Under the pieces are notes generated by a model that saw only the letters and a list, made by a program, of their open reading frames with translations, had not been told where the DNA came from and did no database searches. Made by a program: the position numbers and the translations under genes. From Escherichia coli (GTDB taxonomy: Bacteria; Pseudomonadota; Gammaproteobacteria; Enterobacterales; Enterobacteriaceae), in NCBI RefSeq assembly GCF_003334305.1, contig NZ_QOWS01000030.1: a stretch of DNA of 41,498 nt, one strand, 5' to 3'. Shown here one piece after another: positions 22,678 to 32,588 of this stretch; position 1 is the stretch's first letter, and each line of letters opens with the position of its first letter.

Positions 22678-24444
22678 TTAGTAAGTACGAATCTTCGGCG
22701 GGAATGCCGGGCGCAGTTTCGGTTCCATGTTGACGCTTCGGCGCGTCATGGATTCCGACTCTGGCAGATACAGGGAGTGGCACAGCCAGTTTTCATCATC
22801 ACGATCCGGGAAGTCGAAGCGGCTATGTGCGCCACGGCTTTCGGTACGGAAGTTGGCAGAAACAGCCGTTGCATACGCCGTTTCCATCAGGTTATCCAGT
22901 TCCAGGCACTCAACGCGCTGGGTGTTGAACTCGCTGGAAGTGTCATCCAGACGGGCATTTTTCAGACGCTCGCGGATAACTTTCAACTGCTCAAGCCCTT
23001 TCGCCATCGCATCACCTTCACGGAAGACCGAGAAGTTATGCTGCATACATTCTTGCAGCGCTTTACGAATCGCCACCGGATCTTCACCGTTACGATTATT
23101 GTTCCAGCGGTTCAGACGATCCAGAGATGCTTCAACATCAGACTCGCTGGCATCGCGCAATGCGCCCTGTTCGGCGATAGACTCTTGCAGATGCAGACCT
23201 GCCGCACGACCAAAGACCACCAGGTCCAGCAACGAGTTGCCGCCCAGACGGTTAGCGCCGTGTACCGATACACAAGCGATTTCACCAACGGCAAACAGTC
23301 CCGGAACAACCACATCTTCGCCTTTCTCATTCACAGTCAGCGCCTGACCGGTAACTTTGGTCGGAATACCGCCCATCATGTAGTGACAGGTTGGGATAAC
23401 CGGAATCGGCTCTTTCACCGGATCGACGTGAGCGAAGGTACGGGAAAGCTCCAGGATACCCGGCAGACGGGATTCGAGAACTTCTTTACCCAGGTGATCG
23501 AGTTTCAGTTTCGCGTGTGGCCCCCACGGACCATCACAGCCGCGACCTTCACGGATTTCGATCATGATGGAACGCGCCACCACATCACGGCCCGCCAGGT
23601 CTTTGGCGTTCGGCGCATAACGCTCCATAAAGCGTTCGCCATGTTTGTTCAGCAGATAACCGCCTTCACCACGGCAACCTTCGGTGACCAGTACGCCCGC
23701 ACCGGCAATACCGGTCGGGTGGAACTGCCACATTTCCATATCCTGCACCGGTACGCCTGCGCGGATAGCCATGCCGACGCCGTCGCCAGTGTTAATGTGG
23801 GCGTTAGTGGTGGACTGATAAATACGCCCTGCCCCGCCAGTCGCCAGCACGGTAGCGCGGGCTTTGAAATAAACCACTTCACCGGTTTCGATGCACAGTG
23901 CGGTACAACCCACCACCGCGCCATCCTGGTTTTTCACCAGATCCAGCGCATACCACTCGGAGAAAATGGTGGTGTGGTTTTTCAGGTTCTGCTGATAAAG
24001 CGTGTGCAACAGTGCGTGACCGGTACGGTCAGCCGCCGCCGCAGTGCGTGCCGCCTGCTCGCCGCCGAAGTTTTTCGACTGACCGCCAAACGGACGTTGA
24101 TAGATACGACCATCATCAAGACGCGAGAACGGCAGGCCCATGTGTTCGAGTTCCAGAATCGCTTCCGGCCCGGTTTTACACATATATTCAATCGCGTCCT
24201 GGTCACCGATATAGTCCGACCCTTTTACGGTGTCGTACATATGCCATTCCCAGTTATCTTCATGGGTATTACCCAGCGCAACGGTAATGCCGCCTTGCGC
24301 AGAAACGGTATGGGAGCGGGTCGGGAAGACTTTAGAGAGCAGCGCACAGGTCTGGCCGCTCTGGGAAATTTGCAGCGCCGCGCGCATACCTGCGCCACCG
24401 GCACCAATCACAACTGCATCAAATTCTCTGACTGGCAATTTCAT
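22678..24444 (-). CDS. sdhA: Succinate dehydrogenase flavoprotein subunit, 588 aa
   Basis: ORF-track entry 22678..24456 begins [12 protein letters not shown]; recognised SdhA begins [24 protein letters not shown] (FAD-binding GxGxxG), so the start is set 4 codons in, overlapping the sdhD stop by 1 nt. Confidence 0.95.
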
Positions 24445-24791
24445 CACACACCCCACACCACAACGAATCCATAAATCACGTAAACCACCAGTGCAACGAC
24501 AATCACCAGTTGCAGCATCAGGCGCAATGCCAGCGGTTTAACGTAGTCGGTCAACACCTGCCACATGCCGATCCAGGCATGAATCAAGATAGAAAACAGC
24601 GCCAGCAGGGTGAACACTTTGGTGAACGCAGAGGCGAAGAAACCGATCCAGACTTCATATGTCAGTTCGCCACTGGTGGCGAAAAAACCGACCATATAAA
24701 TGATGTAGAGCGTCAGGACGATAGCGGTAGCGCGAACGAGGATGAAATCATGTACGCCATTGCGTCCTAATGCGGAGGCGTTGCTTACCAT
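24444..24791 (-). CDS. sdhD: Succinate dehydrogenase hydrophobic membrane anchor subunit, 115 aa
   Basis: ORF 24444..24791 minus; [37 protein letters not shown]... Confidence 0.95.
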
Positions 24792-25174
24792 ACGAGGACT
24801 CCTGCGAGAAGTGAAAGCACGACAGTAATAACAAAGGAGGTTTTGGCGGAGCGTTTACCCGCTTCGAATGTTTCTTCCAGATAGCCAAAATCCATCATCA
24901 TGTGGCGAATACCTACGACGACGTGATACGCCAGAGCGGTAAGGATGCCCCACATGATAAATTTGACGAAGAAGCTGCCCATAATCGCGGAAGCTTGCTC
25001 GAAACCTTCAGGGGAAGAGAGGCTGGTACCCAGAAGCCACAGCAGGATGCCCACTGCAACAAAGGTGATCACACCGGAAACGCGATGGAGAATGGACGCT
25101 ATCGCCGTGATGGGGAACCGGATGGTCTGTAGGTCCAGATTAACAGGTCTTTGTTTTTTCACATTTCTTATCAT
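24785..25174 (-). CDS. sdhC: Succinate dehydrogenase cytochrome b556 subunit, 129 aa
   Basis: ORF-track entry 24785..25189 begins [12 protein letters not shown]; recognised SdhC begins [34 protein letters not shown], so the start is set at the second Met. Confidence 0.93.
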
Positions 25175-25882
25175 GAATAACGCCCACATGCTGTTCTTAT
25201 TATTCCCTGGGGACTACGGGCACAGAGGTTAACTTTCTGTTACCTGGAGACGTCGGGATTTCCTTCCTCCGGTCTGCTTGCGGGTCAGACAGCGTCCTTT
25301 CTATAACTGCGCGTCATGCAAAACACTGCTTCCAGATGCGAAAACGACACGTTACAACGCTGGGTGGCTCGGGATTGCAGGGTGTTCCGGAGACCTGGCG
25401 GCAGTATAGGCCGTTCACAAAATCATTACAATTAACCTACATATAGTTTGTCGGGTTTTATCCTGAACAGTGATCCAGGTCACGATAACAACATTTATTT
25501 AATTTTTAATCATCTAATTTGACAATCATTCAACAAAGTTGTTACAAACATTACCAGGAAAAGCATATAATGCGTAAAAGTTATGAAGTCGGTATTTCAC
25601 CTAAGATTAACTTATGTAACAGTGTGGAAGTATTGACCAATTCATTCGGGACAGTTATTAGTGGTAGACAAGTTTAATAATTCGGATTGCTAAGTACTTG
25701 ATTCGCCATTTATTCGTCATCAATGGATCCTTTACCTGCAAGCGCCCAGAGCTCTGTACCCAGGTTTTCCCCTCTTTCACAGAGCGGCGAGCCAAATAAC
25801 AAACGGGTAAAGCCAGGTTGATGTGCGAAGGCAAATTTAAGTTCCGGCAGTCTTACGTAATAAGGCGCTAAGGAGACCTTAA
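25175..25882. promoter_or_regulatory. Divergent sdhC / gltA control region (708 bp)
   Basis: Long AT-rich intergenic region between divergently transcribed sdhC (minus) and gltA (plus); contains a CRP-like motif and several GTTAA-type boxes. Confidence 0.7.
25469..25484. promoter_or_regulatory. CRP-like site (aGTGAtccaggTCACg) upstream of sdhC
   Basis: Sequence agtgatccaggtcacg, a TGA-N6-TCA dyad approximating the CRP consensus TGTGA-N6-TCACA; sdhC is reported to be CRP-activated. Confidence 0.4.
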
Positions 25883-27226: not shown

Positions 27227-27556
27227 TATGCCTAAACACAAAAAATTGTAAAAATAAAATCCACTATCGGACATTCATATATTCTAAAAAAAAATATATC
27301 GGTATAAATTATAAACAAATCGATGATTTTTAATCATCTATCTTCCTCTCAGTTACATGAATAAACCACCAAATATAGTGCACCCCTATAATTTCCAATA
27401 CTTTATTCATCAAACATTTAATTCATACCATCAATTAATTACTTTTACATTTAATAAAATTAATAATATTTTTAAGAAAAACTAAAAACATTCGACAATC
27501 AAATAAGATATTCTTGCACCGATATACTTTTTTCTTTTCTGTTAAAGGACTCCGTT
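27227..27556 (+). promoter_or_regulatory. AT-rich upstream region of the ybg fimbrial operon (candidate H-NS-silenced promoter region)
   Basis: 330 bp of very AT-rich sequence (long A/T runs, e.g. aaaaaaaaatatatcggtataaattataaacaaat) upstream of ybgD. Confidence 0.4.
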
Positions 27557-28123
27557 ATGTTTAAAGGACAAAAAACATTGGCCGCACTGGCCGTATCTCT
27601 GCTGTTCACAGCACCTGTTTATGCGGCTGATGAAGGATCCGGTGAAATTCACTTTAAAGGTGAAGTTATTGAAGCACCGTGTGAAATACATCAGGATGAT
27701 ATTGATAAAGAGGTTGAACTCGGTCAGGTGACCACCAGCCACATTAATCAGTCACATCACAGCGATGCCGTTGCTGTCGACCTGCGCTTAGTCAACTGTG
27801 ATCTGGAAAACTCCAGCAACGGTTCCGGTGGCAAGATTTCTAAAGTTGCAGTCACCTTTGATAGCTCAGCGAAAACCACCGGCGCAGATCCGATTCTCAA
27901 CAACACCAGCACGGGTGAAGCCACCGGCGTCGGCGTACGTTTAATGAATAAAGATCAAAGCAATATCGTTTTAGGCACCGCTACTCCAGATATCGACCTG
28001 GCTCCGACCTCCAGCGAACAAACGCTGAATTTCTTTGCCTGGATGGAACAAATTGATCAGGCTACACCTGTAACGCCAGGCGCAGTTACGGCGAATGCAA
28101 CCTACGTGCTGGATTATAAATAA
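27557..28123 (+). CDS. ybgD: Fimbrial major-subunit-like protein YbgD (type 1 fimbrin family), 188 aa
   Basis: ORF 27557..28123 plus; signal peptide MFKGQKTLAALAVSLLFTAPVYA, pilin-like C-terminus ...ANATYVLDYK. Confidence 0.88.
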   Translation: MFKGQKTLAALAVSLLFTAPVYAADEGSGEIHFKGEVIEAPCEIHQDDIDKEVELGQVTTSHINQSHHSDAVAVDLRLVNCDLENSSNGSGGKISKVAVTFDSSAKTTGADPILNNTSTGEATGVGVRLMNKDQSNIVLGTATPDIDLAPTSSEQTLNFFAWMEQIDQATPVTPGAVTANATYVLDYK

Positions 28124-28173
28124 GTATTACTTTGGCGGCGCTATCGCCGCCTTTCATAAAATATTTATCAGGT

Positions 28174-30633
28174 ATGGACACCGTGAATATTTATCGACTC
28201 TCTTTTGTATCCTGCCTGGTCGTGGCGATGCCTTGCGCATTGGCGGTCGAATTCAACCTTAATGTTCTCGATAAATCAATGCGCGACCGCATTGATATTT
28301 CATTATTAAAGGAAAAAGGAGTCATTGCTCCCGGTGAGTATTTTGTTAGCGTTGCGGTAAATAATAACCAAATCAGTAACGGGCAAAAGATTAACTGGCA
28401 CAAAAATGACGATAAAACCATTCCGTGCATCAATGATTTACTGGTCGATAAATTTGGCTTAAAACCTGAAGTCCGTCAGTCGTTACCATTGATAAATCAG
28501 TGCGTCGATTTTAGCTCCCGACCTGAAATGCTCTTCAATTTCGATCAAGCCAATCAGCAACTAAATATCACCATTCCGCAAGCCTGGCTGGCGTGGCACT
28601 CAGAAAACTGGACCCCACCCTCCACATGGAAAGAAGGTGTCGCCGGTGTCCTGATGGATTACAACTTGTTTGCCAGCAGCTACCGCCCACAGGATGGCAG
28701 CAGCAGCACTAATCTTAACGCCTATGGAACAGCCGGAATCAACACGGGGGCATGGCGCTTACGCAGTGATTATCAGTTGAATCAGACTGATAGCGATGAT
28801 AACCATGAACAGTCAGGCGAAATATCACGTACCTATCTTTTTCGCCCGTTACCGCAATTAGGTTCAAAATTAACCCTCGGCGAAACGGATTTTAGTTCCA
28901 ATATTTTCGACGGTTTTTCTTATACCGGCGCGGCACTGGCAAGTGACGATCGAATGTTGCCATGGGAACTACGCGGCTACGCCCCACAAATTAGCGGTAT
29001 TGCACAGACCAATGCCACGGTGACGATCAGTCAATCAGGCCGCGTCATTTACCAGAAAAAAGTCCCACCAGGCCCATTTATCATTGACGACCTTAATCAG
29101 TCTGTTCAGGGCACACTGGATGTCAAAGTGACGGAAGAAGATGGTCGGGTGAACAATTTCCAGGTTTCGGCAGCATCGACGCCCTTCCTGACTCGTCAGG
29201 GACAGGTTCGCTATAAACTGGCCGCGGGTCAGCCACGGCCCTCCATGTCACATCAAACTGAAAATGAAACCTTTTTTAGCAATGAAGTTTCCTGGGGGAT
29301 GCTGTCAAACACCTCGCTGTACGGCGGCCTGCTGCTTTCTGGTGATGACTACCATTCTGCCGCAATAGGTATCGGGCAAAATATGCTGTGGCTTGGCGCG
29401 CTGTCGTTTGATGTCACGTGGGCCAGTAGTCACTTTGATACTCAGCAGGACGAGCGGGGCTTAAGCTACCGTTTTAATTACAGCAAACAAGTGGATGCCA
29501 CCAACAGCACGATTTCCCTCGCCGCTTATCGTTTCTCCGATCGTCATTTTCACAGCTACGCCAACTATCTGGATCACAAATACAACGACAGCGATGCGCA
29601 GGACGAAAAACAGACGATCAGCTTATCTGTGGGCCAACCGATTACCCCACTAAACCTCAATCTTTACGCCAACCTGCTACATCAAACCTGGTGGAATGCA
29701 GACGCCTCCACGACCGCCAACATCACGGCAGGTTTTAATGTTGATATTGGTGACTGGAGAGATATCTCTATTTCGACGTCATTCAATACAACCCATTACG
29801 AAGATAAAGATCGCGACAACCAGATTTACCTGTCGATTTCGCTCCCCTTCGGTAACGGTGGTCGGGTTGGCTATGACATGCAAAACAGTAGCCACAGCAC
29901 CACACACCGCATGTCGTGGAACGATACGCTGGATGAACGTAATAGCTGGGGCATGTCTGCCGGACTGCAATCCGACCGTCCGGACAATGGAGCCCAGGTG
30001 AGCGGTAACTATCAGCACCTGAGTTCAGCGGGTGAGTGGGATATTTCTGGTACCTATGCCGCCAATGATTACAGTTCCGTCAGCAGCAGCTGGAGCGGTT
30101 CTTTCACCGCAACCCAATATGGTGCAGCGTTTCATCGCCGCAGCTCCACCAATGAACCACGCCTGATGGTCAGCACCGATGGCGTGGCAGATATTCCGGT
30201 TCAGGGCAATCTCGACTACACCAACCATTTTGGCATTGCGGTGGTGCCGTTGATTTCCAGTTACCAGCCTTCCACCGTGGCGGTGAACATGAATGACTTA
30301 CCCGACGGCGTAACAGTTGCAGAAAACGTTATCAAAGAAACGTGGATTGAAGGCGCGATAGGTTACAAATCACTGGCTTCCCGTTCCGGTAAAGACGTTA
30401 ACGTCATCATTCGCAACGCCAGCGGTCAGTTTCCTCCCCTCGGAGCGGATATCCGCCAGGATGACAGCGGCATTAGCGTGGGGATGGTTGGCGAGGAAGG
30501 ACATGCCTGGTTAAGCGGAGTCGCTGAAAATCAAAAGTTTACCGTGGTCTGGGGTGATAGCCAGCATTGCTCGCTCCATCTTCCTGAACATATGGAAGAC
30601 ACCGCAAATCGCCTGATTTTACCTTGTCATTAA
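28174..30633 (+). CDS. ybgQ: Outer-membrane fimbrial usher protein YbgQ (about 815-820 aa)
   Basis: ORF-track entry 28132..30633; usher-family features along the length. Start is uncertain: ATG at 28174 (MDTVNIYRLSF...) or GTG at 28183; the track's ATG at 28132 lies only 8 nt after the ybgD stop. Confidence 0.85.
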   Translation: MDTVNIYRLSFVSCLVVAMPCALAVEFNLNVLDKSMRDRIDISLLKEKGVIAPGEYFVSVAVNNNQISNGQKINWHKNDDKTIPCINDLLVDKFGLKPEVRQSLPLINQCVDFSSRPEMLFNFDQANQQLNITIPQAWLAWHSENWTPPSTWKEGVAGVLMDYNLFASSYRPQDGSSSTNLNAYGTAGINTGAWRLRSDYQLNQTDSDDNHEQSGEISRTYLFRPLPQLGSKLTLGETDFSSNIFDGFSYTGAALASDDRMLPWELRGYAPQISGIAQTNATVTISQSGRVIYQKKVPPGPFIIDDLNQSVQGTLDVKVTEEDGRVNNFQVSAASTPFLTRQGQVRYKLAAGQPRPSMSHQTENETFFSNEVSWGMLSNTSLYGGLLLSGDDYHSAAIGIGQNMLWLGALSFDVTWASSHFDTQQDERGLSYRFNYSKQVDATNSTISLAAYRFSDRHFHSYANYLDHKYNDSDAQDEKQTISLSVGQPITPLNLNLYANLLHQTWWNADASTTANITAGFNVDIGDWRDISISTSFNTTHYEDKDRDNQIYLSISLPFGNGGRVGYDMQNSSHSTTHRMSWNDTLDERNSWGMSAGLQSDRPDNGAQVSGNYQHLSSAGEWDISGTYAANDYSSVSSSWSGSFTATQYGAAFHRRSSTNEPRLMVSTDGVADIPVQGNLDYTNHFGIAVVPLISSYQPSTVAVNMNDLPDGVTVAENVIKETWIEGAIGYKSLASRSGKDVNVIIRNASGQFPPLGADIRQDDSGISVGMVGEEGHAWLSGVAENQKFTVVWGDSQHCSLHLPEHMEDTANRLILPCH

Positions 30634-30647
30634 TTAAGGAAATGAAA

Positions 30648-31379
30648 ATGACATTTATGAAAGGACTACCCCTTTTGTTGTTGGTTGCCAGTCTGTGCAG
30701 CCACGCTGCACTACAACCCGATCGCACTCGTATTGTGTTTAACGCTAATGATAAAGCTACCAGTCTGCGGGTGGATAATCGTAGCGATAAACTCCCCTAC
30801 CTCGCTTATTCCTGGCTCGAAAATGAAAAAGGGGAGAAAAGCGATGATCTTCTGGTCGCCCTGCCGCCGATACAACGTCTGGAACCGAAAGCAACAACGC
30901 AGGTACGGATAGTAAAGCAAGCCTCGACCACAAAATTACCGGGCGATCGCGAAACGCTATTTTTCTACAATATGCGTGAAATTCCTCCCGCCCCGGAAAA
31001 AAACAGCGACCATGCCGTTCTGCAAGTCGCCATTCAGAGTCGTATCAAGGTGTTCTGGCGACCGGCTGCATTACGCAAGAAAGCAGGAGAAAAGGTCGAA
31101 CTGCAGTTACAGGTCAGCCAGCAGGGCAACCAACTGACACTGAAAAATCCTACCGCGTATTATCTGACCATTGCCTACCTGGGACGAAATGAAAAAGGCG
31201 TTCTCCCCGGCTTCAAAACCGTGATGGTTGCGCCTTTTAGTACGGTCAACACAAACACCGGAAATTATAGCGGCAGCCAGTTTTATCTCGGTTATATGGA
31301 TGATTACGGCGCGTTACGCATGACGACGCTCAACTGCAGCGGACAATGCCATTTACAAGCCGTGGAGGCGAAGAAATGA
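30648..31379 (+). CDS. ybgP: Periplasmic fimbrial chaperone YbgP (PapD-like), about 243 aa
   Basis: ORF-track entry 30624..31379; AAGGA Shine-Dalgarno at 30636..30640 favours the ATG at 30648 ([20 protein letters not shown] signal peptide); chaperone-like core [17 protein letters not shown]. Confidence 0.85.
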
Positions 31380-32437
31380 GTGCTGGCAAGGGAGTGTTGC
31401 TCGTCATCTGTCTGTTATTTCTGCCGTTGAAGTCTGCGCTTGCCCTGAACTGCTACTTTGGTTCATCCGGTGGCTCGGTAGAAAAATCAGAAGCGATTCA
31501 ACCTTTTGCTGTACCAGGCAATGCCAAACTCGGCGATAAGATTTGGGAATCTGACGATATTAAAATTCCCGTCTATTGTGACAACAATACCAACGGCAAT
31601 TTTGAAAGTGAGCATGTTTATGCCTGGGTAAACCCCTACCCGGGGGTGCAGGATCGCTATTATCAACTCGGCGTAACTTACAATGGCGTTGATTATGACG
31701 CCAACCAGGGAAAAAGCCGCATCGACACTAACCAGTGTATTGACAGTAAGAACATTGACATTTATACCCCTGAGCAGATTATCGCGATGGGATGGCAGAA
31801 CAAAATTTGCTCGGGTGATCCCGCTAATATTCACATGTCGCGTACCTTTCTCGCTCGCATGCGGTTATACGTCAAAATACGAGAAATGCCGCCGCATGAT
31901 TATCAAAGTACGCTTAGCGACTATATCGTCGTGCAATTTGACGGTGCCGGTAGCGTTAACGAAGACCCTACTGCCCAAAACCTGAAATATCATATTACTG
32001 GTCTGGAAAACATTCGCGTGCTGGATTGCAGCGTCAATTTTTCCATTTCACCGGAAACACAGGTGATTGATTTTGGTAAATTTAATTTGCTGGATATTCG
32101 TCGCCACACAATGTCGAAAACATTCAGTATTAAGACGACAAAATCACAAAATGACCAATGCACCGACGGATTTAAAGTCAGTTCCTCCTTTTATACCGAA
32201 GAAACGTTGGTTGAAGAAGATAAAGCATTGTTGATTGGTAATGGTCTGAAGCTACGTTTGCTGGATGAAAACGCCTCGCCTTATACCTTCAATAAATATG
32301 CTGAATACGCCGATTTCACCAGCGATATGCTGATCTACGAAAAAACCTATACGGCTGAACTTTCGTCCATTGCAGGCACCCCCATCGAGGCTGGCCCCTT
32401 CGATACAGTGGTGCTTTTTAAGATTAACTATAACTGA
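31376..32437 (+). CDS. ybgO: Putative fimbrial adhesin / minor subunit YbgO, 353 aa
   Basis: ORF-track entry 31346..32437; start taken at [23 protein letters not shown] (signal peptide), overlapping the ybgP stop (ATGA). Confidence 0.85.
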
Positions 32438-32445
32438 TTTGCCAT

Positions 32446-32480
32446 GATGCCCTTTGCAGCCGGAAAGGGCATCTCTTTCA
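32446..32480 (+). terminator. Terminator candidate after ybgO
   Basis: Perfect 10-bp stem GATGCCCTTT(32446..32455) / AAAGGGCATC(32464..32473), 8-nt loop, followed by TCTTTCAG (weak U-tract). Confidence 0.45.
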
Positions 32481-32588
32481 GAAAATTGCTGATTTTCCCC
32501 TTTTCCTTGATTGCTGTTATTTTTTCCTGGCCCGGCTTTCTTTATGCTGTATCGATACACCAAAGAGAAAATAATGAGGGAGCGAAGG

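Follow-up and report, generated by a model that had tools for sequence, protein, structure and literature searches.

Start codons of the usher gene ybgQ and the chaperone gene ybgP in the ybg fimbrial operon of Escherichia coli H15

Results

The ybg operon and its open reading frames

The DNA analyzed in this work, hereafter the window, is a stretch of 41,498 nucleotides from Escherichia coli strain H15. Between positions 27557 and 32437 it carries the known chaperone-usher fimbrial operon ybgD-ybgQ-ybgP-ybgO, in which, according to the annotations, the usher gene ybgQ adjoins the genes of a PapD-like chaperone and of fimbrial subunits (ybgD is fimbrial). A mechanical list of open reading frames (ORFs) was compared with the RefSeq annotation of an identical genome (NZ_CP010178.1). 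In the ORF list, ybgQ runs from a TTG at 28132 to 30633 (833 aa) and ybgP from a TTG at 30624 to 31379 (251 aa). The over-extension comes from the rule behind the list, which takes the first ATG, GTG or TTG after a stop codon, and not from the DNA itself; the overshoot is an ordinary annotation point. An earlier sequence-only reading had set aside both TTG codons and proposed 28174 or 28183 for ybgQ and 30648 for ybgP, and every one of its coordinates was correct when rechecked against the sequence and the ORF list. An Rfam search of the operon gave no match, and a promoter and terminator scan returned no more sites than shuffled sequence did. The features considered are the following, SD standing for Shine-Dalgarno sequence:

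27557-28123, + strand: ybgD, fimbrial major-subunit gene, 188 aa (ORF list and RefSeq annotation of the identical genome), with its stop codon TAA at 28121-28123.
28132-28134, + strand: TTG, start of ybgQ in the ORF list, rejected (fold, absence of an SD, comparison of alleles).
28134-28151, + strand: conserved G+C hairpin GGCGGCG-CTAT-CGCCGCC, followed by TTTCAT (fold, conservation, covariation).
28170-28178, + strand: AGGTATGGA, degenerate SD for the GTG start (anchored comparison of 15 representative sequences; duplex of -3.8 kcal/mol).
28174-28176, + strand: ATG, alternative start of ybgQ giving 819 aa (PGAP), inside the SD element; may be a minor start.
28183-30633, + strand: ybgQ, fimbrial usher, 816 aa, from the favoured GTG start (MG1655 curation, conservation, INRI-seq, Pfam).
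28183-28245, + strand: predicted signal peptide of ybgQ, MNIYRLSFVSCLVVAMPCALA (PapC alignment, Pfam, signal-peptide features).
30624-30626, + strand: TTG, start of ybgP in the ORF list, rejected; within the final ybgQ codons (LPCH*), ahead of the SD.
30635-30640, + strand: TAAGGA, SD of ybgP, in all 10 contexts compared (duplex of -6.1 kcal/mol).
30642-30644, + strand: in-frame ATG of H15-like alleles only, separated from the SD by 1 nt; rejected as a start.
30648-31379, + strand: ybgP, periplasmic chaperone, 243 aa, from an ATG start (PGAP and MG1655, conservation, PapD alignment, INRI-seq, Pfam).
30657-30659, + strand: in-frame ATG of H15-like alleles only, 16 nt from the SD; codon 4 of ybgP, internal Met.

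A conserved hairpin between ybgD and ybgQ

The hairpin that follows ybgD has a stem of 7 bp, all G-C, after which the RNA of H15 continues with UUUCAU; its predicted fold is of -19.5 kcal/mol (z = -2.7). It is present in every relative with differing stem sequences, and the replacements covary (C-G to U-A), 89% of the cells being paired, a value that was reached in none of 500 shuffles. The U tract after the stem has 3 U only in H15 and K-12, and 5 U in three relatives (L029, L048 and L049). Owing to its short T run, the hairpin was not reported by a simple terminator scan. We infer that this structure is probably a partial terminator, or a 3' stabilizer of the ybgD mRNA.

Signal peptides and domains of YbgQ and YbgP

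In the alignment with PapC (7lhg_C), residue 1 of the mature chain (VEFN) coincides with the V encoded at 28246, which is V39 of the long ybgQ ORF, and the first position of the PapC_N model falls at YbgQ residue 23. YbgQ shows AxA at -3/-1, a hydrophobic core and a charged n-region, and it is predicted from its sequence to carry a cleavable Sec signal peptide right before the N-terminal domain; this 21-residue peptide would be cut after ALA, leaving a mature usher that begins with VEFN at 28246. Mature PapD aligns with YbgP from the A at 30708 (residue 29 of the long ybgP ORF), before which a 20-residue Sec signal peptide would be cut after SHA. The short forms of both proteins are favoured by the signal-peptide features, with n-regions of 5 residues and a charge of +1. 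Three Pfam domains were found in YbgQ, PF13954 PapC_N (23-162, 1.8e-33), PF00577 Usher (180-730, 1.4e-188) and PF13953 PapC_C (743-799, 2.2e-12), and two in YbgP, PF00345 PapD_N (22-142, 6.8e-34) and PF02753 PapD_C (165-222, 8.1e-14). All the candidate starts of the two genes sit inside the cleaved signal peptide; therefore the choice among them leaves the mature protein unchanged, its biological effect is small, and what it would alter is limited to the initiation yield and to the residues with which the signal peptide begins.

The start of ybgP

The start of ybgP is most likely ATG 30648, the codon that the sequence-only reading had paired with AAGGA at 30636-30640 and that both PGAP and the curated MG1655 annotation use. 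It is the sole ATG conserved in the 10 distinct sequence contexts compared, which include alleles and outgroups (10/10), and TAAGGA lies 7 nt upstream, within the canonical SD-led geometry of about 4-12 nt, so placed that it would position initiation at this codon. At the K-12 equivalent of ATG 30648, initiation profiling by INRI-seq, a cell-free method that uses a truncated synthetic transcript, gave peaks of 43-115 CPM. The other two in-frame ATG codons are replaced in other alleles, that at 30642 by AAG (K-12, E69, O157 and others) and that at 30657 by ATT, GTT, TGC or TTT.

Two rival annotations of the ybgQ start

The candidates 28174 and 28183 turned out to be exactly the starts of two competing public annotations. 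PGAP uses the equivalent of ATG 28174 in every RefSeq genome examined (H15, W3110 and O157), and the curated MG1655 annotation uses the equivalent of GTG 28183, with a product of 815 aa. These candidates can be ranked, and GTG 28183 is the better supported, on the grounds given below.

A species-level genome scan with YbgQ yielded 4 loci, all from Escherichia or contamination and none a real outgroup; the outgroups were obtained by a metagenome scan with a degenerate EFNLNVLDKS pattern. A protein-database search with YbgQ returned mostly short fragments and pieces of pseudogenes, whose N-termini (MNIYR in P0001 and P0005, MDAVN in P0037) depend on the gene caller, and therefore these proteins were only handles for fetching DNA. 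The comparison of the ybgQ starts comprised 29 distinct upstream contexts from 70 loci. In each of these contexts, counting back 21 codons from the cleavage site leads to a GTG or an ATG (20 codons in L011, since its signal peptide is one residue shorter). Intact ushers that are 65-67% identical (mature chains of 793-794 aa) start at the codon aligned with GTG 28183, which is ATG in L034, L041 and L074; in L048 there is a GTG together with a downstream ATG, and in L049 the GTG is the only start codon from the upstream stop to the cleavage site. In the place of ATG 28174 these orthologues have AAG or AGG, which forms part of the SD GGTAAGGA or GGTAGGGA. The anchored comparison of 15 representative sequences likewise placed AGGTAAGGA or AGGTAGGGA in the relatives at the position of AGGTATGGA, and the conserved SD element AGGTA(A/G/T)GGA contains ATG 28174.

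For the initiation sites we report only simple duplex energies and gaps; an RBS-calculator-style model was dropped because short-spacing penalties would dominate it and split SDs lie outside its calibration. Upstream of GTG 28183 lie GGA, with a gap of 4 nt, and AGGT, with one of 9 nt (best duplex of -3.8 kcal/mol), and ATG 28174 has AGG directly upstream with a gap of 1 nt (best duplex of -1.9 kcal/mol). Both SDs are weak, and therefore the thermodynamic argument has little power; the spacing is workable only for GTG 28183. The substitutions between the ATG and the GTG (GAC/GAT, ACC/GCC/ACA/GCT) were considered as codon wobble and discarded, given that the same GA(C/T)-(A/G)C(C/T) pattern occurs in outgroups whose corresponding stretch is clearly a non-coding spacer and therefore does not discriminate between the starts.

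From -30 to +50, K-12 and the window share the same ybgQ initiation sequence. INRI-seq of K-12 showed, 12-18 nt downstream of the GTG, ybgQ peaks of 6.7, 8.4 and 7.2 CPM in three of five replicates; the signal is weak, near the 5 CPM threshold and absent in the other two replicates. The INRI-seq table of alternative starts, which lists upstream sites for other genes, does not include ybgQ. In vivo, Ribo-RET values of K-12 were 0 for the ybg genes, and therefore these data cannot settle the ybgQ start. From the sequence features, their conservation, the homology at the cleavage site and the cell-free K-12 peak at the GTG, we infer that the codon used in living cells is most likely GTG 28183, a placement we hold with reasonable confidence.

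It is possible, if doubtful, that both codons are used, in which case the precursors would differ by three N-terminal residues and yield the same mature usher. Both codons are found in every Escherichia-type sequence, a strong SD is absent from the two of them, and dual in-frame starts have been documented genome-wide in E. coli (PMC9825163). Nonetheless, a single site was detected in vitro, and no functional difference is evident between the two forms, the signal peptide being removed.

Initiation at ATG 28174 only, with GTG 28183 as an internal valine codon and a 24-residue signal peptide (MDTVNIYR...) in a precursor of 819 aa, seems to us unlikely. As a start codon ATG is intrinsically stronger than GTG, and besides being the choice of PGAP in the three genomes named above, ATG 28174 occurs in all the Escherichia-type contexts and in L011, which is 58% identical; the sequence before it is rich in A/U and has little structure (fold of -7.5 kcal/mol), and therefore SD-independent initiation at this ATG is conceivable. 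However, the SD-like bases near this codon only abut or overlap it, the intact orthologues that have AAG or AGG in its place start at the codon aligned with the GTG, INRI-seq called no start site at -9, the curated MG1655 annotation does not use it, and the longer form would add an acidic residue to the n-region, bringing its net charge to 0.

The TTG starts of ybgQ and ybgP in the ORF list

TTG 28132 begins 8 nt past the stop codon of ybgD, and the hairpin stem starts at its G (fold of -16.2 kcal/mol from -30 to +30); a search by anti-SD duplex energies found no usable SD upstream of it. At this position the allele E69 has ATG followed by an in-frame TAG, and O157-type alleles have AAG with a 1-nt indel downstream. 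At 30624 other alleles carry CTG or GTG; relatives of the L010 type, an outgroup, have TGA two codons before the ybgP ATG, and L028, an H15-like allele, has a frame-shifting insertion and an out-of-frame ATG 30642. That the two TTG codons are genuine and yield extended signal peptides is already contradicted and carries a negligible probability, despite both long frames being open in H15 and K-12 and despite upstream-extended automated gene calls in public data (e.g. P0033): other alleles show in-frame stops, lost start codons or frameshifts, the hairpin sequesters TTG 28132, the C-terminal codons of ybgQ put a constraint on TTG 30624, neither has an SD, and the n-regions would be of 22 (ybgQ) and 13 (ybgP) residues. 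They are products of the longest-ORF rule and not real starts, as the sequence-only reading had maintained, and the hairpin, SD and allele evidence bears this out. That reading had argued from their closeness to the upstream stop or to the SD; closeness to a stop is not by itself a valid reason, and better grounds are offered by the hairpin, by the lack of an SD and by the stops and frameshifts of other alleles. The orthologue alignments, which it had named as a possible source of support for the longer starts, do not support them.

Other genes over-extended in the ORF list

The same reading had listed seven further genes of the window as over-extended, and all of them are:

1043-1564, - strand: pal, 173 aa; TTG 1588 in the ORF list (181 aa) is 8 codons too long.
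1599-2891, - strand: tolB, 430 aa; ATG 2894 (431 aa) is one codon too long.
7605-9173, - strand: cydA, 522 aa; ATG 9176 (523 aa) is one codon too long.
22678-24444, - strand: sdhA, 588 aa; GTG 24456 (592 aa) is four codons too long.
24785-25174, - strand: sdhC, short form of 129 aa from ATG 25174 (curated MG1655); the ORF list and PGAP start at 25189 (134 aa).
31376-32437, + strand: ybgO, 353 aa (annotation); the ORF-list start 31346 (363 aa) is over-extended.
32589-33635, + strand: abrB, 348 aa (annotation); TTG 32511 in the ORF list (374 aa) is over-extended.

The ybgO start overlaps the ybgP stop (ATGA), has the SD GGAGG (-9.3 kcal/mol) and shows an INRI-seq peak. The SD of abrB, GAGGGAG, gives -7.7 kcal/mol versus +0.4 at TTG 32511, and INRI-seq detected no peak at the annotated abrB start. 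For sdhC the matter is not only an artefact of the ORF list, given that its long start is also that of PGAP and the annotations thus disagree. The start of the 129-aa form shows strong peaks both in vitro (103-163 CPM in INRI-seq) and in vivo (317 in Ribo-RET), and the INRI-seq listing of alternative starts holds no other sdhC site; the PGAP start is probably five codons too long.

Discussion

The placement of the ybgQ and ybgP starts is mainly a question of quality control, in that a track of longest ORFs over-calls N-termini. For one and the same K-12 sequence, the two principal public annotations differ by three codons at ybgQ and by five at sdhC, and all the PGAP records examined probably make ybgQ three codons longer than it is.

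We propose that GTG 28183 would be the main start of ybgQ translation and that the weak split SD AGGTATGGA would position it. ATG 28174 would be the middle of this SD, where a single base (T here, A or G in the relatives) would turn AAGGA or AGGGA into ATGGA, and this T would create an in-frame ATG three codons upstream of the GTG, possibly used at a low level. An in-frame ATG can thus arise within the SD of the codon that is really used, a possible trap for gene-calling programs with a preference for ATG or for longer ORFs. The weak initiation site of ybgQ together with the hairpin just after ybgD would be expected to hold the output of the usher well below that of the major subunit. A further idea, which we consider improbable and offer as speculation, is that the ybgQ initiation region is a deliberately weakened site, where the base change in the SD would weaken the ancestral start and create the second one, and would set, along with the hairpin, a low usher to subunit ratio, with two forms of the signal peptide in a possibly condition-dependent proportion.

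YbgQ has the domain order of the ushers PapC (P-pilus) and FimD (type 1), that is, PapC_N, Usher and PapC_C, its predicted mature chain begins with the same VEFN as that of PapC, and its gene is likewise located between a pilin gene and the gene of a PapD-like chaperone. In contrast to these systems, in the ybg operon the usher gene precedes the chaperone gene, and the Ybg fimbriae are uncharacterized. The ybg locus has been reported not to be intact in many strains (PMC3559732). YbgP shares PapD_N and PapD_C with the chaperones PapD and FimC (E = 5e-50 to PapD), and has a signal peptide about as long as theirs; our literature and database search found neither a structure of YbgP nor an experimentally identified client subunit. 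Its segments DRTRIVF and RIKVFWRP align with DRTRAVF and KIKLFYRP of PapD, so that the conserved basic-cleft motifs of PapD-like chaperones are found in YbgP; we take Arg8 and Lys112 of PapD to be the basic residues of the cleft that anchor the C-terminus of the subunit.

As in the papA mRNA, known for the differential decay of papBA, and in the CFA/I operon, a stable G+C hairpin in the ybg operon separates the major-subunit gene, which it directly follows, from the assembly genes. The hairpin after papA is said to protect the papA mRNA and to set the stoichiometry of the subunits (PMC5927463). In contrast, the ybg hairpin is followed by a tract of only 3 U in H15 and K-12 and was not called by the terminator scan.

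The ybgQ start resembles those of uidR and speA, for which automated and curated annotations also differ between two in-frame starts a few codons apart; in the studies with INRI-seq and Ribo-RET, of which these genes are examples, initiation profiling could tell such closely spaced starts apart (PMC9825163). It differs from them in two respects: both candidates of ybgQ are located in a cleaved signal peptide, leaving the mature product unchanged, and the SD of the downstream start includes the upstream ATG.

Chaperone-usher locus

The window is 100% identical, in reverse orientation, to E. coli H15 (NZ_CP010178.1). Ybg belongs to the known, core-associated chaperone-usher loci of E. coli, and many strains have no intact copy of it (PMC3559732). 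YbgQ has the usher architecture (PapC_N, Usher and PapC_C in Pfam) and YbgP that of a chaperone (PapD_N and PapD_C). The features considered here are:

27557-33635: contains ybgD (fimbrial subunit), ybgQ (usher), ybgP (chaperone), ybgO (fimbrial protein) and abrB
28134-28151 (+), with a tail reaching about 28165: conserved G+C hairpin downstream of the ybgD stop and upstream of the ybgQ start

Across 5,426 complete E. coli genomes the operon (27400-32600) shows unusual diversity; best matches of at least 99% were found in 1390, of 95-99% in 571, of 90-95% in 2379, of 80-90% in 672 and of 60-80% in 413, at least 80% of the query was covered in only 4159, and K-12 and H15 share only 91% identity over this region. 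The usher gene falls into two ORFs in several relatives (e.g. 311+480, 265+529 and 288+501 aa; L010 653-3099, L013 3501-5951, L014 3501-5913), and short fragments make up many of the database matches to the N-terminus of YbgQ. Both observations fit the reports of ybg disruption in many strains, assembly errors being also possible. A metagenome-assembled genome labelled Collinsella sp. includes contigs that match E. coli ybgQ at 97-100% identity (L006, JAIJJM010000367.1; L008, JAIJJM010000067.1); these are almost certainly contaminating E. coli DNA.

Start codon of ybgQ

The mechanical ORF list, which opens each frame at the first ATG, GTG or TTG after a stop, starts ybgQ at TTG 28132 (833 aa) and ybgP at TTG 30624 (251 aa), as the sequence-only reading had stated; ATG 28174, GTG 28183, AAGGA 30636-30640 and ATG 30648, the landmarks that it proposed instead, are all present. 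Its two ybgQ candidates are the starts of rival annotations of the same K-12 DNA: PGAP (W3110) uses the ATG (818 aa) and curated MG1655 the GTG (815 aa).

We refine that proposal in favour of GTG 28183, which is probably the principal start. EFNLNVLDKS, the conserved start of the mature protein, was sought in metagenome contigs and found at 70 loci. These represent 29 distinct upstream contexts, and a start codon lay at the GTG 28183 position, 21 positions before the cleavage site, in 29 of 29; in L011 it lies 20 positions before, the signal peptide being one residue shorter. This codon is GTG in the Escherichia-type sequences, L011, L048 and L049, and ATG in the L010-type sequences, L012, L047, L054, L062 and L066. 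L049 has no start codon other than the GTG from the upstream stop to the cleavage site. The codon aligned with 28174 is AAG or AGG in the intact orthologues (L034, L041, L048, L049 and L074; 793-794 aa mature, 65-67% identical), where it is part of a Shine-Dalgarno (SD) sequence, GGTAAGGA or GGTAGGGA, 4-5 nt upstream of the start; thus, in E. coli the ATG occupies the centre of a degenerate SD, AGGTATGGA. AGG abuts this ATG, an unusable 1-nt gap, whereas the distances to GTG 28183 are 4 nt for GGA and 9 nt for AGGT. Read from the GTG, the n-region is canonical (MNIYR, charge +1); read from the ATG, it gains an Asp and its net charge is 0. Cell-free initiation profiling (INRI-seq) of K-12, whose ybgQ initiation region does not differ from the window between -30 and +50, gave peaks of 6.7, 8.4 and 7.2 CPM at 12-18 nt past the GTG in three of five replicates; its alternative-site table has no ybgQ entry, although other genes do have upstream sites in it, at -3, -6 and -7.

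That ATG 28174 is the principal start seems unlikely, although it is the stronger codon, occurs in every Escherichia-type sequence and has an A/U-rich region upstream, and although the cell-free signal at the GTG is near threshold and no signal was seen in vivo. Some dual use of both codons may occur. TTG 28132 can be dismissed: its G opens the 7-bp all-G-C stem of the hairpin at 28134-28151, its -30 to +30 region folds at -16.2 kcal/mol and has no SD, the homologous codon is ATG followed by an in-frame TAG three codons on in allele E69 and AAG with a 1-nt deletion downstream in O157-type alleles, and the n-region would reach 22 residues.

Start codon of ybgP

Proposed by the sequence-only reading and used by both PGAP and MG1655, ATG 30648 is very probably the ybgP start. 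CATTAATTAAGGA and an ATG-ACA start are kept in all 10 distinct contexts (42 loci), which comprise alleles at 78-100% identity and the more distant operon of the L010 type. The SD has a duplex energy of -6.1 kcal/mol and a raw gap of 7 nt, and in K-12 this start has 43-115 CPM in INRI-seq (PMC9825163, Table S2). TTG 30624 was rejected: it lies inside the final ybgQ codons, other alleles have CTG or GTG in its place, and a TGA precedes the ATG by two codons in L010-type sequences.

Two further in-frame ATGs, exclusive to H15-like alleles, flank the real start and differ from K-12 by single bases (AAG to ATG and ATT to ATG):

30642-30644 (+): ATG 1 nt past the SD; AAG elsewhere, and not in frame in L028, an H15-like allele
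30657-30659 (+): ATG; ATT, GTT, TGC or TTT elsewhere

Three ATGs within 18 nt could mislead gene callers.

The mature PapC residue 1 (VEFN) aligns with the V at 28246, one residue before the start of Pfam PapC_N, so all ybgQ candidates lie inside the removed signal peptide and the mature usher is unchanged. The mature PapD alignment begins at residue 29 of the long ybgP ORF, which places cleavage after SHA and, likewise, the ybgP candidates inside the signal peptide. The choice of start matters little for either gene; it is an annotation-level matter in an already known operon. The observation of the sequence-only reading is confirmed and its interpretation supported.

Over-extended frames in other genes

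The same reading had listed seven more over-extended genes. Compared with the RefSeq annotation, the mechanical list is longer by 8 codons in pal, 1 in tolB, 1 in cydA, 4 in sdhA, 10 in ybgO and 26 in abrB, owing to its first-codon-after-a-stop rule. For sdhC (-; 25174 vs 25189) the 134-aa ORF exceeds the 129 aa of curated MG1655 but equals the PGAP call (MWALFMIRN...).

Initiation signals by INRI-seq and by in vivo profiling (Ribo-RET)
Gene; INRI-seq (CPM); Ribo-RET
pal; 69-164; 581
tolB; 273-346; 108
cydA; 190-268; 250
sdhA; 8-14; 0
sdhC, 129-aa start; 103-163; 317

The INRI-seq alternative-site table has no entry for these five genes. Since its 12-18 nt window cannot separate the adjacent ATGs of tolB and cydA, their start was argued from the SD gap, 2 nt for the first ATG vs 5 nt for the second. 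The annotated abrB start (32589, +) showed no INRI-seq peak in any of five replicates despite a well-represented transcript (217 CPM), and no alternative site is in the table; without experimental support in that data set, it rests on the annotations and on its SD duplex (-7.7 kcal/mol vs +0.4 at the ORF-track start).

Two intergenic features were also observed:

1004-1142 (-), between pal and cpoB: Rfam match to the CpoB/ybgF intercistronic RNA thermometer (RF02782, 142 bits)
25570-25677 (+), between sdhC and gltA: 35-codon ORF, hypothetical in H15, counterpart of the MG1655 small protein YbgU (Pfam PF23495 in related loci); MG1655 also has the 10-codon ybgV overlapping it

Hairpin between ybgD and ybgQ

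The ybgD stop is TAA 28121-28123, and all relatives have a G+C stem-loop after the stop of the major-subunit gene, with compensatory changes and with stems that differ in sequence (GGCGGC/GCCGCC, GGUGGCC/GGCCACC and GUGGAGUGG/CCGCUCCAC). In an alignment of 15 sequences 89% of the cells were paired, one C-G pair was replaced by U-A in five sequences with none broken, and the observed covariation was reached in 0 of 500 shuffles. The tail has five U in several relatives and is UUUCAU in H15, whose hairpin was not called by a terminator scan. We infer that the hairpin probably acts as a partial terminator, or else stabilises the 3' end of the mRNA, and would set the subunit-to-usher ratio; it resembles the 3' terminator/stabiliser of the papA mRNA (PMC5927463).
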